From the NCBI GenBank assembly GCA_963707865.1, contig OY970175.1, positions 822,028-886,027 on the forward strand: DNA of 64,000 bases, written 5' to 3'. The first letter of the stretch is position 1, and each line of letters starts with the position of its first letter. Below the pieces are notes generated by a model that did no database searches, was not told where the DNA came from, and was given only the letters and a program-made list of their open reading frames with translations. Origin of the DNA: an uncultured bacterium. Its GTDB lineage: Bacteria; Patescibacteriota; Minisyncoccia; UBA6257; 2-01-FULL-56-20. The translations under genes were made by a program, and so were the position numbers. This document shows positions 784-58,701 of the stretch, piece after piece.

Positions 784-2070
784 ATGCCCGCAAAATTTTC
801 CAAAAAACAGATCGTTATCATCGGGGGAGGGATCGTCGTTTTGATTGTCGTTGTCTTCCTCCTTTACGTCGGGTTACGACCAAAGGTGAACACCGGTTCG
901 GGGGTTGCACTTACCGTGTGGGGCACCGAGGATAGCGGGACTTTCGGGGGTCTCCTCGCGTCGTATCCGTACGGGAAGGTGACGTATGTGCAGGTTGATC
1001 CCGCGAACTACCATTCCCAGGTTCTCTCCGCCCTCGCGGCGGGTACCGGCCCTGACGTGTTTGAAGTAAGTAACCGTGAACTCTCAAAGTGGACGTCGGT
1101 GCTCATGCCGATCCCCGCTTCCTCAACGCAGTTCGGTGTCCTCCAGCTTCAAAACTTGTTCCCCGACGCGGTGGCGAGGGATTTTGTTTGGAGTGGGGGA
1201 ATTTATGGACTTCCACTTTCCATTGACACGCTCGCCATGGTGTACAACAAAGATCTTTTTAACGCCGCAGGCATCGCGGTTCCTCCCGCAACCTGGGACG
1301 ATTTTGACGCGGATGTTGTGAAACTTCGCAGCGTGAATGTCTCGGGACAGCTTGTGCGGGCGGCGGCGGCGATCGGCGGCTCGCGCGCGAGCATCCCGAA
1401 CGCCGTTGATATCCTTTCGCTGCTTATGCTCCAAAGCGGGACGCAGATGACGAACAACAAGGGAACCGCCGCGACATTTTTCGACGGCGGGGACAACAGG
1501 ACCACGGGCATAACCGCGTTCAATTTCTACCTGCAATTTGCGAATGCCGTTTCACCGTATTACACCTGGAATGACGGCATGGGGAACGCGGTTGACAGTT
1601 TCGTGGCGGGAAAGACGGCGATCATATTTGCATACCAGTCGGATCTCACGACGATAGAGGCAAAGGCGCCTTACCTCAATATAGGCATCGCGCAAATGCC
1701 GCAGGCGAACGGGGCGAGCATGCCCGTGAACTATCCGGAGTACGACGGCTTCGCGGCGGCGAAAGCGGGCAAGTCGGCCGATGCCTGGAACCTCATCTTT
1801 TATCTCGCGACAAATGCGACGAACGCGGCGGCATATCAAAGCGCGACCGGTAAACCGCCCGCGCTCCGCGCCCTGATTCAGGCAGAGTCAAACAACGCCT
1901 CCCTTTCCGTTTTTGCCACACAGATTTTGACTGCGGAATCATGGTACGAGGCCGACGATACCCAGATAAACGCCATTTTTGACACTGCCATAAAGAACGT
2001 GCTCAGCGGTTCTGCAGATTCATCGCGAGCTTTGAACCAAGCACAAACGGCCGTCAGTCAATTAATGTGA
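784..2070 (+). CDS. extracellular solute-binding protein (ABC transporter family-1 SBP, sugar-type)
   Basis: N-terminal TM/signal anchor. WGTED...GPDVFEV and FAYQSD motifs are typical of family-1 SBPs. 428 aa. Confidence 0.6.
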   Translation: MPAKFSKKQIVIIGGGIVVLIVVVFLLYVGLRPKVNTGSGVALTVWGTEDSGTFGGLLASYPYGKVTYVQVDPANYHSQVLSALAAGTGPDVFEVSNRELSKWTSVLMPIPASSTQFGVLQLQNLFPDAVARDFVWSGGIYGLPLSIDTLAMVYNKDLFNAAGIAVPPATWDDFDADVVKLRSVNVSGQLVRAAAAIGGSRASIPNAVDILSLLMLQSGTQMTNNKGTAATFFDGGDNRTTGITAFNFYLQFANAVSPYYTWNDGMGNAVDSFVAGKTAIIFAYQSDLTTIEAKAPYLNIGIAQMPQANGASMPVNYPEYDGFAAAKAGKSADAWNLIFYLATNATNAAAYQSATGKPPALRALIQAESNNASLSVFATQILTAESWYEADDTQINAIFDTAIKNVLSGSADSSRALNQAQTAVSQLM

Positions 2071-2080: not shown

Positions 2081-2545
2081 ATGAAAACGAAACTTATCGG
2101 TGCTCTAGCCTTGTTTGCGATCATAACACCGTATCTTGCGTTCGCATGCAATGCACACAGCACTGTGTGGGATCCGAGCATCCTGAAGGGGCCACTTATC
2201 TCGTGCACGGGAGCAGGTACGGCTGGCGGGACGGACAATGCGAATTGTCATGACCTTTGCGATCTCGTCTGCACCGCGGGGAACGTTATCTATTTCGGTA
2301 TCGGCGTTGTGATCTGGATTATCGCGCCGATTATGATTGCGTGGAGTGGGATTATGCTGCTCATCTCGCGCGGAAGTCCAGAAAAGACAAGTGAGGCGCG
2401 CAAAATGATAACGAGTGTCGTCATAGGATTATTCATCGTCCTTTGCGCGTACATCATCGTGTATACATTTACGCATGTTCTTTTTTCCGCGGTCGGCACC
2501 GTACCTATTGGTGGTTTCGGAGGGCCTGCCTGTACCGTCCAATAA
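2081..2545 (+). CDS. T4SS pilin-like (TrbC/VirB2-like) small membrane protein, paralog 1 (Cys-rich N-terminus)
   Basis: Signal peptide, then two TM helices flanking a short loop with RGSPEK. Same architecture as downstream paralogs with the GG(Y/F)xYxxxxGDPEK...K(T)LLYAxIAxxxAL motif. Confidence 0.6.
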   Translation: MKTKLIGALALFAIITPYLAFACNAHSTVWDPSILKGPLISCTGAGTAGGTDNANCHDLCDLVCTAGNVIYFGIGVVIWIIAPIMIAWSGIMLLISRGSPEKTSEARKMITSVVIGLFIVLCAYIIVYTFTHVLFSAVGTVPIGGFGGPACTVQ

Positions 2546-2552: not shown

Positions 2553-3476
2553 ATGAATTCAGTACTGATCAACATTAACTCCAATCTTCCCGGTTCGGCG
2601 CCCGCAACTTCTATCTCCGGCTTCGTTAGCAATTTCTACAGTTTTGCCCTTCTCGTGGCGGGCATTCTTGCCTTCGGTGCGATCGTCTACGGCGGTATCA
2701 AGTATGCGGCGAGTCGCGGCAACCCTTCGGCTGAGAGCGAGGGAAGAAGCTGGATCACCGGCGCGCTCCTTGGGCTTCTCTTGCTCGCCGGCGCGTACGT
2801 CGTTCTCTACACCGTGAATCCGCAGCTCGTTTCGCTCCAGATTGCCGGACTCGCCGTCCTTCCTGCTCCGCCTCCCGCCCCCCCATCTCCGGCCCCCCCG
2901 CCCGCGCCTACAGGCCCGGGGACATGCCCCATACCACAGCTTTCCCCAATCATTGATCCAGTAGCTTTGCAGATGGAAAACGGTTCGTCGTTGCTTTGGT
3001 CTACGGGAGGAAGGGATTCCAATGTTGATAAAAACCTGGCGAAATTACAGTCAGAGTTCCAAAAATTGCAGGCGGTCGTCGGCGCGGCAGGTGGCCGCGC
3101 GGCGCCGAACTCCGCGTATCGCCCCCTCGGATATCAGATGCACCTTTATGAAATTTACCAAGACTCGGAGATGCTCTTTGCGAATCCGGACTATGCCAAT
3201 CGGCCCGAGTGCGCGCAAATCGTGGCCACGCTCAAAGCCGAAGAGAACAAGCACGGAGTCTGCAGAACCTCCAACCCCTGTTTGGTAGCGGCGCCGAGTG
3301 GTTGCGCTCCTCATGTGAGAGGGATTGGCGTAGATATAGGATTGACCGGAGTGACGTACGATTCCATCAATGCGTTGCTGCAGAGCAACAACATTGATCT
3401 GCGATGGCAAGGATTGCCCGGCGACCAAGTGCACTTCAATCTACAGAATCCGCCCTATACCGGTTGCGGAGGTTAA
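2553..3476 (+). CDS. fusion protein: N-terminal T4SS-pilin-like domain + Pro-rich linker + C-terminal peptidase M15 (VanY/LAS-type) peptidoglycan hydrolase domain
   Basis: N-term GGIKYAASRGNPSAE...LLLAGAYVVLY matches the paralog motif. Linker PAPPPAPPSPAPPPAP follows. C-term carries S-AYRPLGYQ (SxYR-like), HVRGIGVD (HxxGxAxD) and DQVHF (D/ExxH), the LAS/M15 zinc peptidase signature. Confidence 0.6.
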   Translation: MNSVLININSNLPGSAPATSISGFVSNFYSFALLVAGILAFGAIVYGGIKYAASRGNPSAESEGRSWITGALLGLLLLAGAYVVLYTVNPQLVSLQIAGLAVLPAPPPAPPSPAPPPAPTGPGTCPIPQLSPIIDPVALQMENGSSLLWSTGGRDSNVDKNLAKLQSEFQKLQAVVGAAGGRAAPNSAYRPLGYQMHLYEIYQDSEMLFANPDYANRPECAQIVATLKAEENKHGVCRTSNPCLVAAPSGCAPHVRGIGVDIGLTGVTYDSINALLQSNNIDLRWQGLPGDQVHFNLQNPPYTGCGG

Positions 3477-3493
3477 AAATTAACAGCAATATT

Positions 3494-4039
3494 ATGAAAA
3501 AAACGATAATCGTGGTGGTATGCATAGCTGCAATTCTTGGCGTTGGCCTCCTTGTGTTTTTCCTTGTTGGTCGCAAAAACGGAGGCCTAACAAATACAAA
3601 CAGCGCTCCTTCCTTGCCGTCTGTTGGAACGACGGGAACGGGGTCGCAGGCGGAGCCACTTGTCGTGAGCGCGCTTCCCACGAACACACCGCAGGGCAAC
3701 ACGCTTGTGCTTCAGGGTGCGAAGGGCGGCGTCACTGTGAACAATTTTTATAAGGATGCAAAAGGATACTGGCAGGAAATGGATGCGGTTGTTCTTGAGA
3801 AGGCGACCGCGTACACCATCTGGTACTACCGCTCCGACAGCAGTTTTGTGATTGATATGGGAGAAGGAGCGACAGGGAGCGATCAAAAAGGAGCGGAAGA
3901 TTCCCTCGCGCAGATGCTCGGCGTGAGCGGGCGCGATTTCTGCAATCTATCAATCTACGCCACCATCGTGGAAGATAAAGTGACGGGCGTGCGGGAGGCT
4001 ACGTCCCTGGATATGTGCCAAGCCGGGGCATTCCAGTAA
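3494..4039 (+). CDS. hypothetical membrane-anchored/secreted protein
   Basis: ATG at 3494 (MKKTIIVVVCIAAILGVGLLVFFLV) gives an N-terminal TM anchor. No recognisable domain. Sits inside the pilin-like array. Confidence 0.5.
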   Translation: MKKTIIVVVCIAAILGVGLLVFFLVGRKNGGLTNTNSAPSLPSVGTTGTGSQAEPLVVSALPTNTPQGNTLVLQGAKGGVTVNNFYKDAKGYWQEMDAVVLEKATAYTIWYYRSDSSFVIDMGEGATGSDQKGAEDSLAQMLGVSGRDFCNLSIYATIVEDKVTGVREATSLDMCQAGAFQ

Positions 4040-4068
4040 CGGCCGCACCGTGCTACGCTGTAGATAAT

Positions 4069-4437
4069 ATGAGGACGGTGGGAAAAATCTTAAGGCGGAT
4101 CGGATACGTAATTGTTTTGACAATTCTCGGTGTTGTTTCGGTCGCTTCTGCGGCCAGTGCCCCCCCCACACTCACGAACCCCTTGGGAAGCAGCTGTAAC
4201 GACCTGACCTGTCCCCTGACCGCCGTCATGAACTTCATTTTCACTATCTCCATTCCTATCTGTGGTATTATTATCCTGATCGGAGGCTTTCAGATGATGA
4301 CAGCGGCGGGGGATCCGGAAAAATTCAGCACCGGGAAGAAAACCATCCTTTATGCGGTCATCGGGTTCGTGGTTGTTCTTCTCGCGGGAAGCGTCGCCAA
4401 GCTCATTCAGAGCATATTGGGCGGCGGGTCAAGCTAA
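4069..4437 (+). CDS. T4SS pilin-like (TrbC/VirB2-like) protein, paralog 3
   Basis: Signal peptide (VSVASAASA), then GGFQMMTAAGDPEKFSTGKKTILYAVIGFVVVLLAG. Confidence 0.65.
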   Translation: MRTVGKILRRIGYVIVLTILGVVSVASAASAPPTLTNPLGSSCNDLTCPLTAVMNFIFTISIPICGIIILIGGFQMMTAAGDPEKFSTGKKTILYAVIGFVVVLLAGSVAKLIQSILGGGSS

Positions 4438-4450
4438 TAATTTATCGGGC

Positions 4451-4816
4451 ATGGAAAAGATAAAAAATTTGACGGTTGGTGCGATCGGTTCACTCACGAC
4501 GTCGCTTATCACGGTTGTGAACGCGGCGCCAGCTCCTACGAACGTCATCACGAGTCCGTCAGATATTACCACTCTCCTCTGCGATGTATTGAACTGGGTC
4601 TATTGGGGGCTCATCGTAGTGGGAATAATAATGTTCCTCATAGGCGGCTACCGCTATGCGACGTCGGCGGGAGATCCCGAAAGCGTCAGTAAGGCGAACA
4701 AAACGCTTCTTTATGCCGCGATCGCGATCGTAATCGCGCTAGTGGCGAGAGGAGTGCCGCTCTTCATAGGAAGCGTCTTCGGTGTACAGGCTTCAAGTTT
4801 GAGCGTGTGCCCGTAA
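4451..4816 (+). CDS. T4SS pilin-like (TrbC/VirB2-like) protein, paralog 4
   Basis: GGYRYATSAGDPESVSKANKTLLYAAIAIVIALVARG with a preceding TM helix (LNWVYWGLIVVGIIMFLI). Confidence 0.7.
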   Translation: MEKIKNLTVGAIGSLTTSLITVVNAAPAPTNVITSPSDITTLLCDVLNWVYWGLIVVGIIMFLIGGYRYATSAGDPESVSKANKTLLYAAIAIVIALVARGVPLFIGSVFGVQASSLSVCP

Positions 4817-4832
4817 TGGTATAATAAAAACG

Positions 4833-5249
4833 ATGGTGAGGAACATGTTTTACAAACTTAATTCGCGGACAGGCCGGATGTTTCTTTCTGGATTACTCGC
4901 AACTTCCTCGTTTTTTGTGGCACAAGTCGCCGGGGCAACGATTACTCTGAATCCACCGAATGACGTAAAGGCTCCTGTGACGACGCTCGCGACGGGCGAC
5001 ATCACTACCCTTTTCTGCGGCATCATTAACTGGGTTTTCTGGGGGCTCATTGTGCTCGCCGTTGTTATGACTTTGGTGGGGGGTTACCAGTACGCGGTGT
5101 CGTCGGGAGATCCGGAAAAGGTTGGCAAAGCAAACAAAACGCTTCTTTATGCCGCGATCGCGGCTGCGGTTGCCATATGCGCGTGGGGAGTTCCCTCGCT
5201 CATTGGCAGTATCTTGGGTGCCGGCACCCTTGGCACGTTTTGCAAATAA
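4833..5249 (+). CDS. T4SS pilin-like (TrbC/VirB2-like) protein, paralog 5
   Basis: GGYQYAVSSGDPEKVGKANKTLLYAAIAAAVAICAWG. Near-identical motif block to its neighbours. Confidence 0.7.
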   Translation: MVRNMFYKLNSRTGRMFLSGLLATSSFFVAQVAGATITLNPPNDVKAPVTTLATGDITTLFCGIINWVFWGLIVLAVVMTLVGGYQYAVSSGDPEKVGKANKTLLYAAIAAAVAICAWGVPSLIGSILGAGTLGTFCK

Positions 5250-5254
5250 GAACA

Positions 5255-5668
5255 ATGAGGAAATTTAAGACAACACCTCTTTTTGCAGCAGTTGGCGCGA
5301 CGATTTTAGCGGCGATGGCTTTTGCGCGGACCGCCGCTGGTCTCGCGGGCCCCCCGACGCCTCCCGGTATGACTGGGTTGCCCGTGAGTCCGGTTCAGGA
5401 TGTTTATAGCGTTGCCAGCATTGCGTGCGGCATCCTTTTGTGGATCTTTTGGCTTCTCATTATGTTTGCCATCATCATGTTTCTTATAGGCGGCTACCGG
5501 TATGCGACCTCGGCGGGTGAGCCAGAAAAAGTGCAGAGTGCGAATAAGACACTTCTTTATGCCGCAATCGCGGTCGTTGTGGCTCTCTGCGCGTGGGGGA
5601 TTCCAACCCTTATAGACAGTTTCCTGGGAGGATTTAACTGGCGGATGCTCGTGAGCATCTGTGGATAG
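5255..5668 (+). CDS. T4SS pilin-like (TrbC/VirB2-like) protein, paralog 6
   Basis: Start MRKFKTTPLFAAVGATILAAMAFA (signal), then GGYRYATSAGEPEKVQSANKTLLYAAIAVVVALCAWG. Confidence 0.7.
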   Translation: MRKFKTTPLFAAVGATILAAMAFARTAAGLAGPPTPPGMTGLPVSPVQDVYSVASIACGILLWIFWLLIMFAIIMFLIGGYRYATSAGEPEKVQSANKTLLYAAIAVVVALCAWGIPTLIDSFLGGFNWRMLVSICG

Positions 5669-5677
5669 CAAGAGAAC

Positions 5678-5706
5678 TTGTCGGTTATCTTGAGACGAGA
5701 TATACT
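5678..5706 (+). promoter_or_regulatory. candidate sigma70-type promoter (TTGTCG, 17-nt spacer, TATACT) for the paralog-7 gene
   Basis: ttgtcg at 5678-5683, 17-nt spacer, tatact at 5701-5706, about 38 nt upstream of the ATG at 5745. Confidence 0.35.
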
Positions 5707-5744
5707 AAAACGGTAACTGGAAAGGTCGAAAACTCTCATTATTC

Positions 5745-6131
5745 ATGAAAACAGTAAAAGAATTTGCGAAGGGACTGGTAGCGCCGGTCCTCGCGCTCGG
5801 ACTTCCGCTTGTGGCATTGGGGCAGTTTCAGGGGCCGGGCGTGACAGCACCCGCGTCGCCGGTTACAGGCATATCGCAGATCTCAGGCACGAACGGTCTC
5901 CTCTGCACGATCATTAACTGGCTGTTTTATTTAATGATCATCTTGGCCATCATCTTCGTTTTCGTCGCAGCGTTCAAGTACTTAACTGCCGCGGGCGATC
6001 CTGAAAAGGTGAAGTCGGCAGGGAGTACGCTGCTTTATGCGGTCATCGCCGTTGTGATCGCGCTCGTCGCGAAGGGCATACCACTGATCATCTCAAGCTT
6101 CCTTGGTGGGACCGTCTTCACCGCGTGCTAG
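5745..6131 (+). CDS. T4SS pilin-like (TrbC/VirB2-like) protein, paralog 7
   Basis: Signal peptide, then AAFKYLTAAGDPEKVKSAGSTLLYAVIAVVIALVAKG. A candidate promoter lies upstream. Confidence 0.7.
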   Translation: MKTVKEFAKGLVAPVLALGLPLVALGQFQGPGVTAPASPVTGISQISGTNGLLCTIINWLFYLMIILAIIFVFVAAFKYLTAAGDPEKVKSAGSTLLYAVIAVVIALVAKGIPLIISSFLGGTVFTAC

Positions 6132-6196: not shown

Positions 6197-6267
6197 TTCA
6201 TGGCATCGTGCCGCGGGGGAGATGACGATAGTATACGCAAACGGGAGCAAGGCGGCTCTGGTCTTAT

Positions 6268-6323
6268 ATAAAAACAGAATCCCGCCGGCGTGTATAGTGC
6301 TTTTGAGCGCACGCGCGGCGGGT
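6268..6323 (-). terminator. hairpin + T-run terminator for the convergent minus-strand gene
   Basis: cccgccggcg...cgcgcggcggg inverted repeat, followed on the minus strand by a T-run. Confidence 0.4.
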
Positions 6324-6347
6324 CAATTGAATCGGTACGAAAAAACT

Positions 6348-7238
6348 TCATTGGATACGCTGGTACCGAAGCGTTCCAAGGCCCTGCAGGCACTGCTCCC
6401 GCGGCTTGTTATTTAGCCGCTCGTCGTCAAGGTCAGGAGGGTTTACTCCCCAGGGGCCGTACGACACGGTGAACCCCGAAAAGAGAATCCCAAAGTGGCG
6501 GTCGGGCTGGAATGTGACCCAATATTGGCACCACTGCGTCCAGTCGTCCGGCACGACGATGTGCCCCTCCTTACAGAACTCTCCCTTCCCAGAATCGCCC
6601 AGGTCTCCCAAGAGCACGACATCAAAATATTTGATCTTGTCGTGCTTGTGATTGTTGGTTCCATTCGCGTCCTCCTCGTAGAGGTGACGCGAGATGGAGG
6701 TCGGGTCGGGGTTGTAGTTTGGGTAGCCGCCCGCGCTCCAAAGATCGAAACCTGGAGCAAGGCCGAAGCCTTGAGACCGGGCGAACAGAACCGTTATCAA
6801 TATCATGCTGAGTACTAAAACCCTCCGGAACCATTTGTATTGGTTTGCCAAACGGAGGAATATGTACGACAGCACTACGAATATCAACGCAGCCGTCAGT
6901 CTCTGTTTCATTTGAGCTAGGCCTGTAGGCGCGGGAATGATCAGGAGCAGTGCATATGCTCCCGCGGCGAAAACCAACCCAACAACGAATGAGGCCCAGC
7001 GTAGAGTAGGGGTGGTAAGCCCGACGATGATAGTCACTACTGGTTGTCTTGTGAGGACCAGTGTCACGACCACTCCGAAAACCATCGCGAGCCATGGGAG
7101 AGCCTCCGGCATCCAAATTGCCGATGCCAAAATGAGGAGGATGAGGACGAGCCCTATGCGAAGCAGGGCTCGCACAACGAAATTGCCGGACCTCACGAGG
7201 GCCTCCAGAATCCTTCGGACTTCTCTTGCAGTTCCCAT
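6348..7238 (-). CDS. hypothetical polytopic membrane protein with a C-terminal extracytoplasmic domain
   Basis: 296 aa. About 5 hydrophobic helices, then a Cys/Trp-containing C-terminal domain (GEFCKEGH...WTQWCQYW). No family recognised. Confidence 0.5.
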   Translation of the reverse strand: MGTAREVRRILEALVRSGNFVVRALLRIGLVLILLILASAIWMPEALPWLAMVFGVVVTLVLTRQPVVTIIVGLTTPTLRWASFVVGLVFAAGAYALLLIIPAPTGLAQMKQRLTAALIFVVLSYIFLRLANQYKWFRRVLVLSMILITVLFARSQGFGLAPGFDLWSAGGYPNYNPDPTSISRHLYEEDANGTNNHKHDKIKYFDVVLLGDLGDSGKGEFCKEGHIVVPDDWTQWCQYWVTFQPDRHFGILFSGFTVSYGPWGVNPPDLDDERLNNKPREQCLQGLGTLRYQRIQ

Positions 7239-7247
7239 ATTTCCTCC

Positions 7248-7937
7248 TCAGAAGATCAGGCTAAAGAGATCCTTCAACCGTTGGATCCTTCGGCCCTTTC
7301 CTCCCTTTTTCGCCCCGGGCAAACCCTCCGTCCAGTCGGCGATTACTTTCACTCTAGATGCCAAAAGCCTGTCCAACGCCTTCAATTCGGGCTCAATCTC
7401 TTTCCACCCGGCTCGGACATCCTGCTTGAATTTCCTCAGGTCCTCAATCGTGATTTTCCTGGGGGCCGTAGCGGGCTGTTGGGTTTTCTCACGAATGAGA
7501 TCCGCGAGACGGATCCGCAACTGAAGTTCCTTTTTCAGTTGCACGAACACGTCCTTTGCTGCTTTCGTATTCTTGGCTGCCTGGAGCCGCGTGGTGGCGG
7601 ATTTCTGGAAATCTTTGACCCAACTCAGATCGGAAGAGGTCTTCCCCCCTCCCTTACTCTGTTCGCCGATGCTGCGGCCGATGTTCTCCGTGAAGTCGCC
7701 GAGCTTCTCCACTAGCATACCCAGTATCGGTGACTTGACCGGGTCAGTTTTTGACTCGATCCAGCCAGCAAGAGGTCCAAGCATCCTCTCGAAGAGAGGT
7801 GACTTGGCCCAATCTGGAAGGAGAGACGCAACCCAATCTGCTCCCCTTTCCGTCTCTCGGTCGAAAACTTTCGACAGCTCAATCAATAGATTTTTTCGGC
7901 TTTCCTGTTTCGGCGTCGGACCATTCGCGTTCGCCAT
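7248..7937 (-). CDS. hypothetical protein (charged, probably coiled-coil)
   Basis: Preferred start MANANGPT at 7937, preceded by AAGGAGG. Lys/Glu-rich. No family recognised. Confidence 0.45.
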   Translation of the reverse strand: MANANGPTPKQESRKNLLIELSKVFDRETERGADWVASLLPDWAKSPLFERMLGPLAGWIESKTDPVKSPILGMLVEKLGDFTENIGRSIGEQSKGGGKTSSDLSWVKDFQKSATTRLQAAKNTKAAKDVFVQLKKELQLRIRLADLIREKTQQPATAPRKITIEDLRKFKQDVRAGWKEIEPELKALDRLLASRVKVIADWTEGLPGAKKGGKGRRIQRLKDLFSLIF

Positions 7938-8065
7938 ATGAAACCTCCTTAATTGAATTTTCTGGCTCATGCGTGGGTTCGCCCTCGCATGTGCTTCGTA
8001 CATAATAGCATAGAATCTACAATTTGTCAAATATCTTAAATTGTCTTAATATAACAATAGGTTTT

Positions 8066-8146
8066 GCTGGGGTGGCGAAATGGCAAACGCACTGGCTTTA
8101 GGAGCCAGCGCCGCAAGGCTTGTGGGTTCAAGTCCCACCCCCAGCA
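8066..8146 (+). tRNA. tRNA-Leu (anticodon UAG), type II with a 13-nt variable arm
   Basis: Cloverleaf folded by hand. Acceptor gctgggg/ccccagc. Anticodon stem ctggc/gccag with loop tttagga. Variable-arm hairpin gcc-gcaa-ggc. T-arm gtggg-ttcaagt-cccac. Confidence 0.8.
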
Positions 8147-8148
8147 CG

Positions 8149-9133: not shown

Positions 9134-11425
9134 ATGAGCCAGGAATCCACCAGCGGAACAATCCCTACGCCCGCGGAAGAGCCAAAAAAGGAAGCAGGGG
9201 AAGTACGGCCGCGATATAAAATAGTAGCTGGCTCCGAGGAAGAGCCATCTATCCGCTTGCTGGGGTTTTCGGAGGGAGCAACAGAGACGCCGGCGGAGCG
9301 CGCAGCGCGCGAAGCAGAAGAAAAACTGGAAAAGGATCTTACGACTGCCCGCGACGAGTATGCAAAAATAAGCCGTGAATTCAAGAAATCTGGCAATGGA
9401 GACAAGAAGGCGCTGGAGGAGGCGCAGAAAAAGTATTCTGAGGCACGGAGGGATGAGCTTGAACACAGGCTGGGATTTTTTGAAGAGACGTTTGACGAAG
9501 AAGTTAAGCGTGGCACATTCAAGGCAGAAGACAGGAAAAAAGAAATTGCGAGATTTACCAAGTTTGGTTTGGTGAATGAATTCAAGCAGCTCTACGACGC
9601 AAAAACGAATCTGGAGATCGCCGAGAAAAAAGAAACCATTGCGAACAGGATCGGCAAAGCGGCATACCGGGCTTTTGATTGGTATCGGAAGCTCCCGGCT
9701 TGGAAAAAGGTTACTGCAGGTGTTGCGCTTATGGGGGTTGGTTGGGCCGGCGGCGCAACTGCGGTGGTAGCCGCATCCGTTGCGGGCGCAAGCACGGCCA
9801 TGAGACTGATGGGCTCGGGAGGTATGACGCTCACCATAGAAGCCCTCTTGAAGAAAAGGGATGAAAGGAAGCTTGCGAGAGAGATCGGTAAGGCACTTAA
9901 TGTTGGGGAAGGGGTTGATACGGCGCTCCAAAGTGCACGGGAAGGGAAAACCGCAGCGGCGCTGACCGAATTTTTGAAAGCAAACGATGCGCAATTATTG
10001 GACCGTTATGCGGACAACGAAGAAATATTCAGAAAGAGGGAGGGGGCATTAAGAAAGAGAAGGTGGTTAATCTCTGCCGCGGGAGGTGCGGCGATGTTCG
10101 CGGGCGGGTTGGCCCTTAGCAAGCTTATACATGGCTCTGGCGGGCATGGGGCGACGACTGGGCATGCGCCCGGATCCGCCGCGGGCGCTCCGAAAGTGGA
10201 AGTGGTCATAGGAGACCAAGTGGAGATGAAGGACACCGTTTGGAATTCCTGCAGAATCTTGCTGAACCAGCAAGGGATTGCGCACCCGACGCCGAGTGAG
10301 ATTATGCAGGTTGCAGAGCAGGTAGCGAAGGATAATCATGTCGGCGTGGCTCCGTGGAACATCCCTGGGAGTTCACTGGATGTTGCCATGAAACAAGGGG
10401 AGCATCTCAAGCTGACAAAGATGGTAGGTGGGCTTGTGAAGGAAATTGTTGCGAAGCATGCTGGGGCGCCATCACACGGAGTCCATGCACTTGGCAACGA
10501 AGTCGTGCCGCATCCCGCACACGAAGTCTCGTCGATACCTCCGTCGCCGCATGCGCCTGATGTTCCTATTTCTCATCCCGCAGAAGCAACCGCGCATGTG
10601 AGCGGCGAATCTGCCGCCGCCAATGTTCCGCACGTCCACGAAGCCGCATCACCGGCGGCCCCACTGGCAGGAGATCAGGGTTGGCATCACTTCAGCCATC
10701 AGCAGGGAGAACATCCATTCACTGGAACGCACGGAAAGGTACCTGCACCACCCGCGCCGGACGCGGCCGCGAACGCGCAAATGAATACCGTGGATAATTT
10801 TTTCAGCGTGCCGCATTCGCTTCAGGATGAGATTGGGTTCTTGAATTCACATGCGCATGATTTCAGCCACGAAGCGTTGGGAAGAGCCAGGGACGCCGTA
10901 TTCAACGATCAGAGCTTTGATTTTTCGCGCCGATACAATTTTCTAGAGCAACAGGAAGCCCTCACAAGGATGCACGAAATCGTTGCAAAGGCCACCGACC
11001 CTTCACTCCGGGATTGGTACCAGGGAATGGCGAATGCCTTGGAGCACGGTGCTGCCTACCAACACTCCGAAGGGGTTTTTCGGGAAATGCTTGGCCGCGC
11101 CGGCATGAACGCCAAAGAGTACGGTGACGTGAAAAACATGACGGTTGGCAAATTCCTTGGGCACCACCGATGGCACAGCATAGCCGACTGGTTCAAATCC
11201 CCCTATGCCGTGGCTGACCCCACGCATCCGCAGACGTACGTATACCGAGGATGGGGGGGCGTCCGGGCCACGACCGTTCCTGGGGCTACTCCGGAAAGAA
11301 TCTATCATTCCAGATTACTTGCGGAAGAAATGCGGCAGTGGTTTTTGACCAGGGCTTCCTCCACCGATTACAAAAACCTTACCGTGGACGAATGCCTGAA
11401 GACGATGATCGGGCCAGAATCGTAG
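9134..11425 (+). CDS. large hypothetical membrane protein (coiled-coil N-term, two hydrophobic segments, His-rich region, C-terminal globular domain)
   Basis: 763 aa. Charged coiled-coil N-terminus. Gly/Ala-rich TM segments (VALMGVGWAGGATAVVAASVAGA; LISAAGGAAMFAGGLAL). His-rich stretch (HPAHEV...HVHEA...WHHFSHQQGEHPF). No family recognised. Confidence 0.5.
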   Translation: MSQESTSGTIPTPAEEPKKEAGEVRPRYKIVAGSEEEPSIRLLGFSEGATETPAERAAREAEEKLEKDLTTARDEYAKISREFKKSGNGDKKALEEAQKKYSEARRDELEHRLGFFEETFDEEVKRGTFKAEDRKKEIARFTKFGLVNEFKQLYDAKTNLEIAEKKETIANRIGKAAYRAFDWYRKLPAWKKVTAGVALMGVGWAGGATAVVAASVAGASTAMRLMGSGGMTLTIEALLKKRDERKLAREIGKALNVGEGVDTALQSAREGKTAAALTEFLKANDAQLLDRYADNEEIFRKREGALRKRRWLISAAGGAAMFAGGLALSKLIHGSGGHGATTGHAPGSAAGAPKVEVVIGDQVEMKDTVWNSCRILLNQQGIAHPTPSEIMQVAEQVAKDNHVGVAPWNIPGSSLDVAMKQGEHLKLTKMVGGLVKEIVAKHAGAPSHGVHALGNEVVPHPAHEVSSIPPSPHAPDVPISHPAEATAHVSGESAAANVPHVHEAASPAAPLAGDQGWHHFSHQQGEHPFTGTHGKVPAPPAPDAAANAQMNTVDNFFSVPHSLQDEIGFLNSHAHDFSHEALGRARDAVFNDQSFDFSRRYNFLEQQEALTRMHEIVAKATDPSLRDWYQGMANALEHGAAYQHSEGVFREMLGRAGMNAKEYGDVKNMTVGKFLGHHRWHSIADWFKSPYAVADPTHPQTYVYRGWGGVRATTVPGATPERIYHSRLLAEEMRQWFLTRASSTDYKNLTVDECLKTMIGPES

Positions 11426-23985: not shown

Positions 23986-26900
23986 ATGAATAGCACCAGT
24001 TTTAATTTTAGAAAATTCGTTCCCTTGTTTTTAATAATAGTGTTTGCCCTCGCCGGGTCGGTCTTTGTACAGCATGCGAGTGCAGGAACAATAGGTTCTG
24101 TAGGCATCGCGTCGCCGGCTGGCGGCCAGAAGTGGAGCGGTTCTCATAATATCACATGGACCACCACGGGAAATGCAGGTGGAACAAGTACGGTGAATAT
24201 TTATTATTGCCATGATACTCCGAGCGGCGGTTGTGGCGATGGAATAAATACACTTATTCAGGCAAGCGTCGCCGACGATAGTAGTAGCAGCACCGTAGAA
24301 ACATATAGCTGGAATACAACGTCCCCGTCCATACCAGATGGCTCCGATTATAAAATCAGGGTGTCCGCTTCGGCCGATGCTGGCGTTTCGGGTCTTTCGG
24401 GCACCGACTTCACCGTGGACAACACGCCGCCCACCATCTCTATTGGTTCCCCCTCGGCCTTGCTTACCGCTACAACTTCGGTCGCCTACACTATTACTTA
24501 TAGTGGTGCTAGTACGGTGACCCTCGTAGATGGAAACGTGACAGTGAATAAGACGGGTAGCGCCACGGGCACGGCCGCAGTCACCGGAAGCGGCACTTCC
24601 ACTCGCACTGTTACGATCTCAGGCATCGGCGGCACTGGAACGTTGAGTATCACGATTGCTACGGGGACCGCCTATGATGATGCAACCCCACCCAATTACG
24701 CCACAGGGACTGCCGCCAGCGCCACCTTCGCCGTGGACAATACAGCGCCCGCTGCGCCAACAGCAGTGACGCTTACCGATCCGATCAATTTAACAAACCA
24801 AGCAAGCGTTACGGTTACCGGCGATGCCGCGGGTGAAGCCGATGGCTCTGTGGTGACTTGTTCGGTCAGCGACCCAAGTGTAGTTCATACGGTTCAAGCT
24901 ACGAGTTCTGCAGCGACCAATGCATTTACCATTCCTTTAGACGTTCACACTTTGAACGATGGCACCTCGACTGCTACGTGTTACGTTACTGATCTTGCGG
25001 GAAATGTCGGTGCGACCCGAACCGATACGGCTACAAAAGATACGGTCGCGCCGACCATCTCCGTAAGCACGTCCTCGGCAACGCTTACGAACACCGGCCC
25101 CGTCACGTACACCGTTACGTACACCGGCGCTAGTGCGGTGACCCTTGTCCCGGGCGACATCACGCTCAATGCGAGCGGCACTGCCGCGGGCACCGTAGGG
25201 GTCTCCGGCACCAGCACCAGCGGGGGGACCGTCACGATCTCGGGCATCACCGGCGACGGGACGCTGGGTATCACGATCGCCGCGGGTACGGCGTCTGACG
25301 CTGCAGGGAACACCGCCACAGGGACTGCCGCCAGCGCCACCTTCGACGTGGACAATACCGCGCCGACCATCTCCGTAAGCACGTCCTCGGCAACGCTTAC
25401 GAACACCGGCCCCGTCACGTATACCGTTACGTACACCGGCGCTAGTGCGGTGACCCTTGTCAATGGAAACGTAACGCTTAACAAGACGGGCACGGCGACA
25501 GGAACCGTAGGGGTCTCCGGCACCAGCACCAGCGGGGGGACCGTCACGATCTCGGGCATCACCGGCGACGGGACGCTGGGTATCACGATCGCCGCGGGTA
25601 CGGCGTCTGACGCTGCAGGGAACACCGCCACAGGGACTGCCGCCAGCGCCACCTTCGACGTGGACAATACCGCGCCGACCGATCTAGTGGTTAATGCCGT
25701 CTTTGCGGCTTCAACGACCAAACAAGGCAACGCTTCAGTAACGATCGCAAGCTCCGGCGATGCGTCCAACACGGTTTGGTTCGCGCCGCCAGGAACCGTG
25801 GCCTTCGCTACAGACACGACCATGACCAAAGCGGGAGGAACCGATATTTCAATCCTTGCCCCCGCCAATGAGGGTTCCTACAAACTTTTTGTGATTGACG
25901 CCGCCGGCAATGTTTCGTCGGGATCCAATGCGATACTCACCGTGGACAATACGCCGCCGACCATCTCCGTAAGCACGTCCTCGCTCCCGGTCACGAACAC
26001 CGGCCCCGTCACCTACACCGTTACGTACACCGGAGCCAGCTCCGTAACGCTTGTCAACGGAGACGTAACGCTTAACAAGACGGGCACCGCGACAGGCACC
26101 GTAGGGGTCTCCGGCACCAGCACCAGCGGGGGGACCGTCACGATCTCGGGCATCACCGGCGACGGGACGCTGGGTATCACGATCGCCGCGGGTACGGCGT
26201 CTGACGCTGCAGGGAACACCGCCACAGGGACTGCCGCCAGCGCCACCTTCGACGTGGACAATACCGCGCCGACCATCTCCGTAAGCACGTCCTCGGCAAC
26301 GCTTACGAACACCGGCCCCGTCACGTACACCGTTACGTACACCGGCGCTAGTGCGGTGACCCTTGTCCCGGGCGACATCACGCTCAATGCGAGCGGCACT
26401 GCCGCGGGCACCGTAGGGGTCTCCGGCACCAGCACCAGCGGGGGGACCGTCACGATCTCGGGCATCACCGGCGACGGGACGCTGGGTATCACGATCGCCG
26501 CGGGTACGGCGTCTGACGCTGCAGGGAACACCGCCACAGGGACTGCCGCCAGCGCCACCTTCGACGTGGACAATACCGCGCCGACCATCTCCGTAAGCAC
26601 GTCCTCGCTCCCGGTCACGAACACCGGCCCCGTCACGTACACCGTTACGTACACCGGCGCTAGTGCGGTGACCCTTGTCCCGGGCGACATCACGCTCAAT
26701 GCGAGCGGCACTGCCGCGGGCACCGTAGGGGTCTCCGGCACCAGCACCAGCGGGGGGACCGTCACGATCTCGGGCATCACCGGCGACGGGACGCTGGGTA
26801 TCACGATCGCCGCAGGTACGGCGTCTGACGCTGCAGGGAACACCGCCACAGGGACTGCCGCCAGCGCCACCTTCGACGTGGACAATACCGCGCCGACCAT

Positions 26901-29900
26901 CTCCGTAAGCACGTCCTCGGCAACGCTTACGAACACCGGCCCCGTCACGTACACCGTTACGTACACCGGCGCTAGTGCGGTGACCCTTGTCCCGGGCGAC
27001 ATCACGCTCAATGCGAGCGGCACTGCCGCGGGCACCGTAGGGGTCTCCGGCACCAGCACCAGCGGGGGGACCGTCACGATCTCGGGCATCACCGGCGACG
27101 GGACGCTGGGTATCACGATCGCCGCGGGTACGGCGTCTGACGCTGCAGGGAACACCGCCACAGGGACTGCCGCCAGCGCCACCTTCGACGTGGACAATAC
27201 CGCGCCGACCATCTCCGTAAGCACGTCCTCGGCAACGCTTACGAACACCGGCCCCGTCACGTACACCGTTACGTACACCGGCGCTAGTGCGGTGACCCTT
27301 GTCCCGGGCGACATCACGCTCAATGCGAGCGGCACTGCCGCGGGCACCGTAGGGGTCTCCGGCACCAGCACCAGCGGGGGGACCGTCACGATCTCGGGCA
27401 TCACCGGCGACGGGACGCTGGGTATCACGATCGCCGCGGGTACGGCGTCTGACGCTGCAGGGAACACCGCCACAGGGACTGCCGCCAGCGCCACCTTCGA
27501 CGTGGACAATACCGCGCCGACCATCTCCGTAAGCACGTCCTCGCTCCCGGTCACGAACACCGGCCCCGTCACGTACACCGTTACGTACACCGGCGCTAGT
27601 GCGGTGACCCTTGTCCCGGGCGACATCACGCTCAATGCGAGCGGCACTGCCGCGGGCACCGTAGGGGTCTCCGGCACCAGCACCAGCGGGGGGACCGTCA
27701 CGATCTCGGGCATCACCGGCGACGGGACGCTGGGTATCACGATCGCCGCGGGTACGGCGTCTGACGCTGCAGGGAACACCGCCACAGGGACTGCCGCCAG
27801 CGCCACCTTCGACGTGGACAATACCGCGCCGACCATCTCCGTAAGCACGTCCTCGGCAACGCTTACGAACACCGGCCCCGTCACGTACACCGTTACGTAC
27901 ACCGGCGCTAGTGCGGTGACCCTTGTCCCGGGCGACATCACGCTCAATGCGAGCGGCACTGCCGCGGGCACCGTAGGGGTCTCCGGCACCAGCACCAGCG
28001 GGGGGACCGTCACGATCTCGGGCATCACCGGCGACGGGACGCTGGGTATCACGATCGCCGCGGGTACGGCGTCTGACGCTGCAGGGAACACCGCCACAGG
28101 GACTGCCGCCAGCGCCACCTTCGACGTGGACAATACCGCGCCGACCATCTCCGTAAGCACGTCCTCGGCAACGCTTACGAACACCGGCCCCGTCACGTAC
28201 ACCGTTACGTACACCGGCGCTAGTGCGGTGACCCTTGTCCCGGGCGACATCACGCTCAATGCGAGCGGCACTGCCGCGGGCACCGTAGGGGTCTCCGGCA
28301 CCAGCACCAGCGGGGGGACCGTCACGATCTCGGGCATCACCGGCGACGGGACGCTGGGTATCACGATCGCCGCGGGTACGGCGTCTGACGCTGCAGGGAA
28401 CACCGCCACAGGGACTGCCGCCAGCGCCACCTTCGACGTGGACAATACCGCGCCGACCATCTCCGTAAGCACGTCCTCGGCAACGCTTACGAACACCGGC
28501 CCCGTCACGTACACCGTTACGTACACCGGCGCTAGTGCGGTGACCCTTGTCCCGGGCGACATCACGCTCAATGCGAGCGGCACTGCCGCGGGCACCGTAG
28601 GGGTCTCCGGCACCAGCACCAGCGGGGGGACCGTCACGATCTCGGGCATCACCGGCGACGGGACGCTGGGTATCACGATCGCCGCGGGTACGGCGTCTGA
28701 CGCTGCAGGGAACACCGCCACAGGGACTGCCGCCAGCGCCACCTTCGACGTGGACAATACCGCGCCGACCATCTCCGTAAGCACGTCCTCGGCAACGCTT
28801 ACGAACACCGGCCCCGTCACGTACACCGTTACGTACACCGGCGCTAGTGCGGTGACCCTTGTCCCGGGCGACATCACGCTCAATGCGAGCGGCACTGCCG
28901 CGGGCACCGTAGGGGTCTCCGGCACCAGCACCAGCGGGGGGACCGTCACGATCTCGGGCATCACCGGCGACGGGACGCTGGGTATCACGATCGCCGCGGG
29001 TACGGCGTCTGACGCTGCAGGGAACACCGCCACAGGGACTGCCGCCAGCGCCACCTTCGACGTGGACAATACCGCGCCGACCTACTCGGTGGCATATACC
29101 GTAGGCGGAAGCCCCGTGACCTACCTCAATGAAAATGACCATGTCGTGATTACGGCGACCTTCAACGAAGACATGGCTGTCTCGCCGACACCTAAGATTC
29201 AGTTAGACGGTGCTGCGACTGCGTTATCGGCGACGGACATGGTGAGGGACACCGCCACCAGCTCTCACTACAACTGGTTCGCCGGTCAAACTGGAGACGG
29301 CGTGATGACGCCGACCGTGACCGTGGGAACGGATGTGGCGGGGAACACAGTGACCGAGGCTAGTTCTACGAAAACAACAATAATGGTGGACAACACAGCG
29401 CCGGTCGTTGACCCAGGTGCAAGTGTCGGAACGGTGGCGGAAGAATTTACGCAGAACGGATCTTCCACCGACGAAGGAGGTTCGGGCGTTAATACGGGCA
29501 CCTATCAATGGACCAAAGTGCTCGGTCCCGGTACGGTTACCTTTGGCAGTTCCTCCACCGCCATCACAACCGTAAGCGCCAATGTTGACGGTGCGTATGG
29601 TATCAAACTGGCCGTTAGTGATAATATCGGCAACATTGGTTCAAGCACCGTCGGTTTTGTGTGGTCATCCACCAATGTTCCTATAGTGTCTTACAATCCG
29701 GCCAGCGGGGCGACGGGGGTTTCTATAGCTACTGGCACGGCAATCGTAACTTTTAGCGCTGACATCACAATAGTAAGTTCCACTAAGGTTGATTTGGTAG
29801 ACGATGCCAGCAGCACTTCCATGAAAAATGGCGCGGTGACAGCTACCAGCAGCACTCTCCTCATTCCTTACGTCGGGCTGGGAAATGCGAGAGTGTATAG

Positions 29901-30847: not shown

Positions 30848-32119
30848 ATGACTAAAACAAGACTCGTTGTCATTTGCCTTGTCGGGGTACTCGTTCCTTT
30901 GAGTGGAGCATTTGCCACGGCGTCAACCTCATCGGAGGTGAGTAGCACGTTGAGCGCCCCCACGCTTTCCCCTATGCTTCCCAACGGCACGCTCGTCGTC
31001 CCGCCGTCGGCGTCTTTCGCATCCGGCGATTATCATTCCTCGCTTAGCGTAACCCTTACCGCAGCCGGCTCGCATGCCATCTATTACACACTGAATGGCA
31101 CGGGGGATCCGGTATGCGCTACGGGGACGGCGTATACAAGCGCGCTCACGATCAATAGTGCGACGACATTGAAAGCCGTCGCCTGCTACAGCGACGATAA
31201 CAGCGTTTCTTCGACGATCGCCCCCTATGCCTACACCTTTAGCTGCAGTCCGGCGACGGTTTCCAATGGATCGTTTTCTTCGTATTCCTCCGGTTGTTTA
31301 ATCAGCTGTTATTCTGGTTATACGCCGAGCGGCGGATCGTGTGTAGCTTCCGGTAGTAGTGGCAGCGGAGGCAGCGGGGGCGGCGGGGGTTCGTACAGCA
31401 ATCCCTATACCATTACGATCAACGGCGGCGCGACGACGACTGCTTCGGCGAACGTCACCCTTGTGCTCACCTCGCTCGGGGGGATGAACTGGGTGTGGAT
31501 TTCAAATGATCCGAGCTTCGCCACGTCAACGGGAACCGGCTGGATTCCATTCCAGGCGACCTATCCATGGACGTTGGCCTCGGGACCGGGAAATAAGACC
31601 GTCTATGCAGAATTCGGGAGCGCAAGCAATACGGTGGCCTTTGCGGGATCCGCCCAGGCCAGCATAACGGTTGTGGGCGGTGGCACTGGCGGGACAACCG
31701 GTAGCGGCGGTAGCGGCGGAACATCGGGAACATCGCGCGCGTCGCAACTACAGCTTCTTAATATGCTCATTGCGGAGCTTCGGCTCCTTCTCCAACAGGC
31801 GTTGGCACAAGGAATAACGCTTCCGCCGGGCGTGGCCGCGTATCTCAATGCGGGATCCGCGACATCAACGCTTTCGGCCATAACGCGTGACCTTACTATC
31901 GGCTCAATCGGCACGGACGTGAGCGCTCTCCAGGCGTTTCTCATCTTGCAGAACAAAGGCCCCGCCGCTAGTGCTTTGGCTGCGGTTGGTGCCACCGGGC
32001 ACTTTGGATTGCTCACCCAGGCAGCGCTTGCGGAGTATCAGGCGGCGGTGGAGATTACGCCCCCCACGGGATACTTCGGTCCTCGTACGAGAGCGTATTT
32101 GCAGAGCATAGGATACTAG
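30848..32119 (+). CDS. secreted protein with chitobiase-C-like N-terminal module, Gly/Ser linkers and C-terminal peptidoglycan-binding domain (PG_binding_1)
   Basis: Signal peptide. AIYYTLNGTGDP (CHB_HEX_C-like). C-term DLTIGSIGTDVSALQAFL...GHFGLLTQAALAEYQAAVEITPPTGYFGPRTRAYL matches the PG_binding_1 pattern. Confidence 0.55.
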   Translation: MTKTRLVVICLVGVLVPLSGAFATASTSSEVSSTLSAPTLSPMLPNGTLVVPPSASFASGDYHSSLSVTLTAAGSHAIYYTLNGTGDPVCATGTAYTSALTINSATTLKAVACYSDDNSVSSTIAPYAYTFSCSPATVSNGSFSSYSSGCLISCYSGYTPSGGSCVASGSSGSGGSGGGGGSYSNPYTITINGGATTTASANVTLVLTSLGGMNWVWISNDPSFATSTGTGWIPFQATYPWTLASGPGNKTVYAEFGSASNTVAFAGSAQASITVVGGGTGGTTGSGGSGGTSGTSRASQLQLLNMLIAELRLLLQQALAQGITLPPGVAAYLNAGSATSTLSAITRDLTIGSIGTDVSALQAFLILQNKGPAASALAAVGATGHFGLLTQAALAEYQAAVEITPPTGYFGPRTRAYLQSIGY

Positions 32120-55467: not shown

Positions 55468-55557
55468 CCCTGTGTGTGCGGTATTTTGAAAAACCCTCTC
55501 TGGCCTCGCAAAAATCCGGCTCGCTCATAACGAAAAAATGCCGCCCTAGTCGCTGCT

Positions 55558-55606
55558 CCCGGGCACCCGGCATTTTTTCTATTCGCTCGCGGATTTTTTT
55601 ACTCGG
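55558..55606 (+). terminator. long hairpin + T-run after pilB (central element of a larger imperfect palindrome)
   Basis: aaaaaatgccg...cggcattttttc: 11-bp stem with a large loop. Confidence 0.4.
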
Positions 55607-55773
55607 CCTCCGCACGGTTTTTCAAAATACTGCCACGGGCAGGGCTACACCCGCTTCCTCATTTTTATATTGCAGTTCCGACGCAATCTGAGGTGTCCGA
55701 ATCCTCTCCTGTGCGCAGAAAAACAATCCGCGACAGATTGTCCCTCATCTTTTAGTCGTGATAAAATAGCTCA

Positions 55774-56223
55774 ATGGATCGCAAACCTCTCTCTTCTGAG
55801 GAATTCAAGGCAATCTACTCGAAGGTCCCTAGATTGTGCGTTGACCTGATCATAAGGACGGAGAAAGGTATCGTTTTGACGCTCCGTAATCTTCCGTCGT
55901 GGAACAACCAATGGCACCTCCCCGGGGGGACGGTGCTTTACAAAGAAACCCTTGAGCAGGCAGTGGCAATGATTGCCCAGGAAGAATTAGGCATTCCCGT
56001 GCATATCGAAAAGATGCTGGGATATATTGAGTATCCGAGTGAAGAAAAGGAACGTGGATTTGGCTGGGCTATCAGCATCGCCTTCCTTTGCAGGACCGCT
56101 GCACAAGACTTCAAAGTCAATGACGAGGCCAGTAAGGCAGGCATTTTCGATCAATTACCGGAAAACCTGATTCACGAGCAATCGTCATTTTTGAGGGCTC
56201 ATTGGGCAGAAATTGAAAGATAA
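55774..56223 (+). CDS. NUDIX hydrolase
   Basis: WHLPGGTVLYKETLEQAVAMIAQEELGI matches the Nudix box (GX5EX7REUXEEXGU). Confidence 0.8.
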   Translation: MDRKPLSSEEFKAIYSKVPRLCVDLIIRTEKGIVLTLRNLPSWNNQWHLPGGTVLYKETLEQAVAMIAQEELGIPVHIEKMLGYIEYPSEEKERGFGWAISIAFLCRTAAQDFKVNDEASKAGIFDQLPENLIHEQSSFLRAHWAEIER

Positions 56224-56319
56224 GAGATCTTATATCTGCGCCCTACCAGGATCGTTCGAAAATCGTCCGGGCCTGTGCGCGGCACTTTCCCTTTGTGGTA
56301 TACTTTAGAAAAAGAACCG

Positions 56320-57396: not shown

Positions 57397-57398
57397 TA

Positions 57399-58610: not shown

Positions 58611-58701
58611 AAACTTATCCACATCTCAAACGGCTCCATTTTTCCCCGTATCTGTGGTAACTTTATTAAATGGAAAGGTCGAATTTAACCAAGCAACCTA
58701 T

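Follow-up and report, generated by a model that had tools for sequence, protein, structure and literature searches.

A VirB2-like pilin module joined to a predicted VanY-like wall peptidase, and the exchange of its head, in an uncultured patescibacterium

Why would a pilin carry an enzyme that is predicted to cut the cell wall? The question is raised by a gene at 2553..3476 (+) in a 64-kb stretch of DNA, the whole of which we call the window, from an uncultured member of the Patescibacteriota, for which candidate phyla radiation (CPR) is another name. A sequence-only reading had described its product as a pilin-like domain fused to an M15/VanY hydrolase, and both halves of that description hold: the N-terminal part forms a PF18895-like hairpin, and the zinc ligands of the C-terminal part align with those of a known enzyme. 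From its open reading frame (ORF), its domains, and about 20 full-length homologs, we describe it as a modular pilin gene that joins a VirB2-like pilin module, a Pro-rich linker, and a VanY-like M15 peptidase. Close relatives hold a different wall-cutting head at the same spot, which makes the pilin look like a carrier whose wall-degrading heads can be exchanged.

The fusion is encoded in one uninterrupted frame of 307 codons, giving a protein of 307 amino acids. Its ATG lies 7 nt past the stop codon of the upstream pilin gene and directly follows an in-frame TAG, so the protein cannot extend N-terminally, and its closest homologs share the same N-terminal start (MNSVQI...). A frame error joining two separate genes had been named as the finding that would undo the original description, but the fusion is conserved in about 20 full-length homologs from independent metagenomes, and it is therefore neither an assembly nor a frame artifact. 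The AlphaFold2 model of the full-length protein has a predicted local distance difference test score (pLDDT) of 82. A promoter and terminator scan found nothing above shuffled expectation.

The pilin module occupies residues 19-88 (2607..2816, +) and contains two hydrophobic helices, as judged by Pfam, the structural model, hydropathy, and 76% identity to a bare pilin described below. The Pfam family T4SS_pilin (PF18895) matches residues 19-86 with 26.3 bits (cut-off 26.6), and proteins that have the module at 60-80% identity reach up to 41 bits, with 35 of the 36 scanned matching at E<=0.01. The AlphaFold model folds the module into a hairpin of two long helices (21-53 and 58-88), and the hydrophobic segments TM1 (28-49) and TM2 (68-88) flank the loop KYAASRGNPSAESEGRSW, 18 residues long with three K/R and two D/E. 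The two-helix pilin-like N-terminus proposed earlier was thus borne out, and its identity as a VirB2-like T4SS_pilin hairpin is supported. Its structure matched the conjugative pilin 8dfu of the archaeon Aeropyrum weakly (TM-score 0.62, E 4). The fusion protein has no cleavable N-terminal signal peptide, as its first 27 residues are polar and uncharged and the TAG blocks any extension; many of the more distant homologs do have a cleavable signal peptide ahead of the module. Matches of the module to Htr2 and other sensory-rhodopsin transducers were rejected as generic hydrophobic-helix similarity. The module is followed by an uncharged, Pro-rich linker (residues 89-124; 2817..2924, +), recognized by composition, pLDDT, and blastn, which also holds the left recombination junction of the cassette discussed below. 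None of its 36 residues is charged, half of residues 99-120 are proline, and the pLDDT falls below 50 at residues 96-106.

The C-terminal domain (residues 125-307; 2925..3473, +) is a VanY-like M15 zinc peptidase domain of the LAS/Hedgehog-DD-peptidase fold, with 183 residues and six cysteines. The three LAS/M15 signatures quoted in the sequence-only reading are all present in the stated order: S187-AYRPLGY-Q195, H254-VRGIGV-D261, and D291-QV-H294. The first, S187-x-Y-R-P-x-x-Y-Q195 (3111..3137, +), is the counterpart of the GYRS...Q substrate-binding segment of VanY and Ply500; the second, H254-x-x-G-x-x-x-D261 (3312..3335, +), would supply two zinc ligands; and the third, D291-x-x-H294 (3423..3434, +), is predicted to supply the catalytic acid/base and the third ligand. 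Across 21 full-length homologs (33-56% identity), S187, Y189, R190, P191, Y194, Q195, H254, G257, D261, D291, and H294 are invariant, and C125, C220, C251, and C305 are invariant or nearly so. A profile of 167 family domains aligns R190/Q195, H254/D261, and D291/H294 onto R50/Q55, H80/D87, and D130/H133 of Ply500, whose zinc ligands are H80, D87, and H133 (PMC3315420). This alignment needed the 167-sequence profile; when an 18-domain profile was set against Ply500 as a single sequence, hhalign paired the wrong segment. The His/Asp ligands, the absence of which would have spoken against a peptidase, are accordingly present and aligned at the level of sequence. Since the catalytic set is invariant and aligned to the Ply500 ligands, we read the domain as a divergent M15/VanY-like peptidase whose predicted catalytic residue set is complete. 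The bond cleaved by the predicted peptidase is not readable from its sequence.

Profile and structure comparisons point the same way. Pfam VanY (PF02557) matches the fusion protein itself below the gathering cut-off of 25 bits (18.9-20.6 bits, E 4e-4 to 1.4e-3), and it matches 14 of the 18 family members, with a best E of 3e-7; hits to PF02557 were already recorded for the homologs P0010, P0102, and P0105. The last of these, a Paenibacillus protein with a VanY domain and two peptidoglycan-binding domains, is linked to the C-terminal domain by profile search (E 4.6e-17). The domain modeled on its own has a pLDDT of 91; Foldseek ranks the phage endolysin domain Ply500 first, and VanY and the carboxypeptidases LdcB/DacB are also among the nearest solved folds. 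The comparison with VanY and phage peptidases suggested earlier thus favors the M15 assignment at the level of the predicted fold. A profile of 18 C-terminal domains gave no meaningful match among PDB sequences. There is no SLT or lysozyme-like glycosidase domain, the VirB1-type trait, in the C-terminal domain, which matches a metallopeptidase. Within M15/VanY, the enzyme represents a subfamily that is both new and divergent: it has 15-21% identity to VanY, VanX, VanXY, LdcB/DacB, Ply500, and LysB4, and it differs from these known M15 enzymes by a helical insertion of about 35 residues that separates the YR..Q motif from HxxG (helices 192-234), by a conserved N-terminal CP..L.P..DP.AL..E.G segment, and by its conserved cysteines. 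Known M15 enzymes are held by a signal anchor or a cell-wall-binding domain, whereas the fusion is anchored by a pilin hairpin.

How common is this arrangement? The sequence-only reading had not recognized the architecture, but it is not a one-off; it belongs to a sizeable family that is common in CPR metagenomes, and the peptidase is one of several heads. The same fusion was found in dozens of independent metagenomic sequences and at two syntenic loci (L001 and L004). A search of a genome collection with the single fusion protein returned only two loci with the N-terminal module, both in one metagenome-assembled genome (MAG), whereas an exhaustive search with a hidden Markov model of the C-terminal domain across 1.84 billion cluster representatives returned 769 relatives (50%-identity representatives) that define a divergent VanY-like subfamily, 350 of them at E<=1e-10 and 48 at E<=1e-30. 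The pilin module is present in 42 of these 48 closest representatives, and the other six (163-255 amino acids, no pilin module) are probably fragments. Among the best 150 relatives of the domain, 62 have the module, and more distant relatives carry other N-termini. In P0104 (325 amino acids), the same VanY-like head is joined to a different pilin subtype with a Cys motif, and P0067 (432 amino acids) is a single ORF that unites the carrier module with both a pilin-1-like module and an SLT_3 head; fusion of a pilin to a wall hydrolase apparently arose more than once.

The surroundings of the gene show what happens to the head. The window begins with the 3′ end of gyrA, followed by a gene for a solute-binding protein (SBP), a first pilin gene, the fusion, a 181-amino-acid partner, and five more pilins. 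The order gyrA–SBP–pilin 1–fusion–partner–pilins recurs at loci L001, L004, L008, L009, and L010, and from pilin 1 onward at L011, whose contig begins there; xerC–rpsO–NYN–pnp also lies downstream in L001, L004, L008, and L009. The locus is preserved in seven related genomes. The head is VanY-like in the window, L001, and L004, and it is a Cys-rich, lysozyme-like domain with a weak SLT_3 match in L008 and L009 (proteins P0021 and P0025). L010 and L011 have two further types that have no family assignment, and a CHAP head occurs at a non-syntenic locus. In another protein, P0042, the SLT_3 match of the head reaches 33.5 bits, above the cut-off of 27. Neither Pfam nor a PDB sequence search assigned the P0056-type and P0074-type heads, whose H...D and HxH motifs merely suggest LAS-like enzymes. 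When heads were classified by BLAST against reference heads, the 99 proteins that share the module comprised 21 with VanY-like, 18 with SLT-like, nine with P0056-type, six with P0027/P0074-type, and four with CHAP-like heads; in about 40 the tail is Cys-rich, of an unknown kind, or absent.

The closest loci, L008 and L009, locate the exchange precisely. Against these two loci, protein identity is 95% for the GyrA C-terminus, 88-92% for the SBP, 79-82% for pilin 1, and 82-83% for the N-terminal module of the fusion; the enzyme has no similarity, and the carrier is thus more conserved than what it carries. At the DNA level, blastn gives 84-87% identity from position 1 to 2856/2903 and again from 4150/4171, with nothing detectable between. 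Because flanks of such identity enclose a stretch with no detectable similarity, a cassette of about 1.25 kb (2904..4149, +) has been replaced at a fixed chromosomal slot; it begins with the end of the linker, takes in enzyme domain and partner gene, and reaches into the 5′ end of the pilin gene that comes next. The cassette has no foreign compositional signature, as its GC content and its GC content at third codon positions (GC3) resemble those of the flanks.

The partner gene (3494..4039, +) encodes 181 amino acids with an N-terminal membrane anchor and an outer domain of about 110 amino acids that has two conserved cysteines. The protein has no Pfam or PDB match, and a word-index search with it found one close homolog only. 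A homolog follows every fusion type examined. It is exchanged together with the head, with 33-35% identity between the window and L008/L009 as against 79-95% for the flanking genes, while the partners of L008 and L009 are 91% identical to each other. Homologs of a single family stand immediately downstream of M15, SLT-like, CHAP, P0074-type, and P0056-type heads. As one family serves five unrelated heads, the idea that the partner is a head-specific cognate immunity protein of the classical kind is weakened. The partner follows a lone CHAP fusion, yet no homolog was found after a bare pilin beside a VirB4-like gene at locus L005, and it is therefore tied to the fusions and not to the array. 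It may act as an assembly factor, a chaperone, or a regulator.

If the carrier is a VirB2-like pilin, is there a type IV secretion system (T4SS) that it could serve? The sequence-only reading had placed the gene in a T4SS gene cluster, and this setting is not supported. Pfam gave no match to VirB4, VirB6, or VirD4 among the larger ORFs of the window that were scanned, several of which had no hit at all while the hits of the others were to housekeeping genes and a type IV pilus cluster, and tblastn of the T4SS proteins of a related MAG against the 64-kb window recovered the pilin module only. With no T4SS machinery found there, the link of the fusion to a T4SS is indirect. It runs through contig CAVYIK010000003.1 of that MAG, where a bare pilin of 126 amino acids comes after two other genes, one for a VirB4-like ATPase (P-loop_TraG/AAA_10, with a frameshift in the assembly) and one for a membrane protein, with yidC/dnaA as neighbors (L005, 7333-10348). 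The module of this bare pilin is 76% identical to that of the fusion in the window. On the same contig, some 40-50 kb away, a near-identical module is fused to a CHAP-like domain (L006, 9950-11640; Pfam CHAP below the cut-off), followed by a 276-amino-acid partner homolog with no other pilins around. Judged by its gene neighborhood, the bare copy beside the VirB4-like gene points to a genuine T4SS link for the carrier module. Stand-alone VirB2-like arrays are described as typical of Patescibacteria, and VirB1 homologs as often missing near virB4 in these genomes (PMC12102498); a VirB2-like pilin array is reported to be essential in Southlakia (PMC10633639).

We consider it slightly better than an even chance that the fusion is a modular VirB2-type pilin that directs a predicted peptidoglycan peptidase to the site of pilin assembly for local opening of the wall. 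The two-helix module would insert as a hairpin whose two ends lie outside and whose short basic loop lies inside. On its flexible Pro-rich linker, the VanY-like peptidase would then be held beyond the membrane, within the wall compartment of an ultra-small, monoderm CPR bacterium. Such a location is consistent with the uncharged 27-residue N-tail and linker, the three K/R of the loop, the six cysteines of the C-terminal domain, and the signal peptides of many homologs. H254, D261, and H294 would bind zinc, D291 would act as acid/base, and R190 and Q195 would hold the carboxylate of the substrate. The enzyme would then cut stem peptides of peptidoglycan, in either its own or a host's wall, perhaps as a carboxypeptidase or as an L-Ala-D-Glu-type endopeptidase. 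As the anchor itself belongs to a pilin family whose members assemble with T4SSs, it may deliver the enzyme to the place where the six neighboring pilin paralogs assemble, and opening of the wall there would give a pilin-tethered peptidase a VirB1-like role.

Several observations weigh against this proposal. Both Pfam matches of the fusion protein fall below the curated cut-offs (26.3 versus 26.6 bits for the pilin module and 18.9-20.6 versus 25 bits for the peptidase), and no T4SS machinery was found in the window by the Pfam scan of larger ORFs or by tblastn. We infer an N-out topology for a protein that has no signal peptide, and the formation of filaments by CPR VirB2-like proteins is unproven. 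In close relatives, moreover, the peptidase is replaced by a glycan-cutting head, a turnover that would be unexpected if the enzyme merely punched holes as a housekeeping function, since sister species share a wall.

This turnover leads to the alternative that survives best, which we regard as possible, if rather doubtful: the module would co-polymerize with the bare VirB2-like pilins, and a head displayed on the filament would breach the wall of a host or partner, with different heads matching different host wall chemistry. Stated for the group as a whole, and as tentatively, CPR VirB2-type pilins would be "evolved pilins" comparable to evolved VgrG/PAAR spikes: their heads, wall-degrading and perhaps also adhesive, could be exchanged, and such pilins would enter a T4SS pilus sparsely or at its tip, for the episymbiont to open the host wall at the contact site. 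Swaps of head and partner between lineages would follow the host's wall chemistry. In solved conjugative pili, the termini of the subunits face outward. The head has been swapped between genomes that have 84-87% identity in the DNA of the flanks and 95% protein identity in the GyrA C-terminus, the one syntenic slot is taken by at least four different heads, and about 40% of module proteins have Cys-rich non-enzymatic tails or none; rapid turnover and many non-enzymatic, Cys-rich heads fit a display role better than a self-directed one. The bare paralog with its near-identical module beside VirB4 and the precedent of modular type IV pilins (PMC8179133) can be added. Evidence for filament formation or for incorporation into a filament is, however, lacking, and a head of 180 amino acids on every subunit would be sterically impossible, so sub-stoichiometric or tip incorporation must be assumed. 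Furthermore, a single downstream partner family follows all heads, unlike cognate immunity proteins, and there is no known host.

It is improbable, in our view, that the protein has a housekeeping role as a DD- or LD-carboxypeptidase of the VanY, LdcB, or DacB kind, anchored in the membrane, which would trim the cell's own stem peptides with the hairpin as a mere anchor and no link to a pilus or T4SS. VanY and LdcB/DacB are among the closest solved folds, the chromosomal locus is conserved among housekeeping genes, and T4SS genes were not found nearby by tblastn of the window. Sister genomes nevertheless replace the enzyme with a lysozyme-like head at this locus, which makes us disfavor a housekeeping role. 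In addition, the fusion gene always lies within the pilin array at syntenic loci, the same module carries SLT_3 and, weakly, CHAP heads, and the module is conserved at 82-83% where the enzyme shows no similarity. Lastly, the idea that a frame error joined two genes, or that the protein is a prophage's endolysin on a holin-like anchor, could quote the phage endolysin Ply500 as top Foldseek match and a tyrosine recombinase gene 4.7 kb downstream. It is effectively refuted, as dozens of independent metagenomic sequences keep the fusion, the scanned surrounding ORFs showed no phage genes, the recombinase belongs to a conserved chromosomal synteny with rpsO, NYN, and pnp, and the GC and GC3 of the cassette match its flanks.

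The remaining genes around the fusion can be described briefly. A membrane-anchored SBP (SBP_bac_1; 784..2070, +) is placed between gyrA and the array by Pfam and synteny. The first array pilin (2081..2545, +) has a Cys-rich N-terminal part, belongs to the T4SS_pilin family (PF18895, 29.6 bits), and keeps its position in all syntenic loci. Five further VirB2-like pilins (4069..6131, +), each with 37-47 bits to PF18895, lie at the probable coordinates 4069-4437, 4451-4816, 4833-5249, 5255-5668, and 5745-6131, and probable starts and signal peptides were noted. Four of them (4451-4816, 4833-5249, 5255-5668, and 5745-6131) have one cysteine just before the first hydrophobic helix and another in the last 1-4 residues, and a disulfide between the two would tie the outer ends of the hairpin together in a manner reminiscent of the head-to-tail cyclization of some VirB2/TrbC pilins. 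Unlike these four small pilins, the pilin module of the fusion contains no cysteine.

Downstream of the array are two genes of unknown function, tRNA-Leu, a XerC-like recombinase, an NYN-domain gene, pnp, recA, and ftsK. A second variable spot adjoins the array at 6199-8062, where the DNA that separates the last pilin from tRNA-Leu (8066-8147) resembles L008/L009 little or not at all, although its flanks are 84-99% identical; it contains two minus-strand ORFs (6348-7238 and 7248-8030) that have no Pfam match. Between the XerC-like recombinase and NYN/pnp lies an ORF of 763 amino acids (9134-11425), also with no Pfam match, of which relatives conserve only a part (blastn 10180-10441 against L008). 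As secretion-type machinery, the window yielded nothing but a type IV pilus set at 53746-60395, separate from the VirB2-like array and made up of a pilB-like ATPase (53746-55467), a pilT-like gene (56275-57396), a pilC-like gene (57399-58610), a prepilin peptidase (59033-59881), and a type IV pilin (59886-60395). A giant ORF of 2279 amino acids (23986-30825), which matches Ig-like, PKD, and DUF7356, probably encodes a repetitive surface protein; in its center (about 26-28 kb) the GC content is 68%, the mean of the window being 55%, and the opposite strand has long frames free of stops. Two PG_binding_1 proteins, at 30848-32119 (423 amino acids) and 39537-43022 (1161 amino acids), are further wall-associated products.

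How much of this is already known? Pilin arrays of Patescibacteria (PMC10633639; PMC12102498; PMC12857230), anchored hydrolases associated with T4SSs in monoderms, and modular type IV pilins (PMC8179133) have all been described. As far as the accessible text of Wang et al. 2023 (PMC10633639) and Quinonero-Coronel et al. 2025 (PMC12102498) goes, the window resembles the published arrays in having a tandem of seven divergent VirB2-like genes, interrupted by one non-pilin gene, in a CPR genome; the arrays in that text have small pilins and separate hydrolases, in contrast to the pilin-hydrolase fusion seen here, and the present array adjoins gyrA and not virB4. A full-text literature search for a pilin-hydrolase fusion in CPR bacteria likewise gave, in the portions of the papers it could draw on, only pilins and hydrolases as separate proteins.

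Three known systems share part of the design. Hydrolases of T4SSs, such as VirB1 and, in monoderms, PrgK, TraG of pIP501, and CwlT, also cut the wall, are held at the membrane, and are associated with a T4SS, and CwlT and PrgK combine SLT, CHAP, or metallopeptidase-type domains. Their anchor is of an ordinary kind, transmembrane or lipoprotein, and what defines them is a domain with lytic transglycosylase or muramidase function, whereas the fusion has a pilin-homologous anchor and an M15 peptidase. Polymorphic effectors (evolved VgrG/PAAR, Rhs, CdiA-CT, and LXG) have a conserved carrier, a variable C-terminal enzymatic head, and a head-specific immunity family. The fusions share with them the conserved N-terminal carrier, the variable C-terminal head, and the exchange of a cassette together with the next gene, but their downstream gene is of one family for all heads; the likeness would be one of gene arrangement, with toxicity and delivery no part of it. 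Modular type IV pilins (PilB and PilC of Streptococcus sanguinis; PMC8179133) likewise consist of a small polymerization module onto which a linker grafts a functional module, and many architectures are known, peptidase modules included (PMC8179133). Type IV pili are nevertheless an unrelated filament, whose pilins have a class III signal peptide and just one N-terminal helix, and the carrier here is a two-helix pilin of the VirB2/TrbC type. Combinations of SLT, CHAP, and metallopeptidase domains in monoderm T4SS hydrolases are also described in PMC12102498.

Most interesting among these elements is that a cassette has been exchanged at a fixed slot of the chromosome. Patescibacteria rely on host cells, and in their only genetically tractable species a T4SS and a VirB2-like array are essential for epibiotic growth, with a function left unexplained (PMC10633639; PMC12857230). 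A pilin paralog with an exchangeable hydrolase points to a testable function, that of wall breaching organized by pilins, and pilin-borne hydrolases may help explain why VirB1 homologs are often not found beside virB4 (PMC12102498). The principle of the modular pilin is also extended from type IV pili to unrelated conjugative-type pilins. If the pilin is indeed a carrier for exchangeable heads, this would give the essential and unexplained pilin arrays of Patescibacteria a concrete job.

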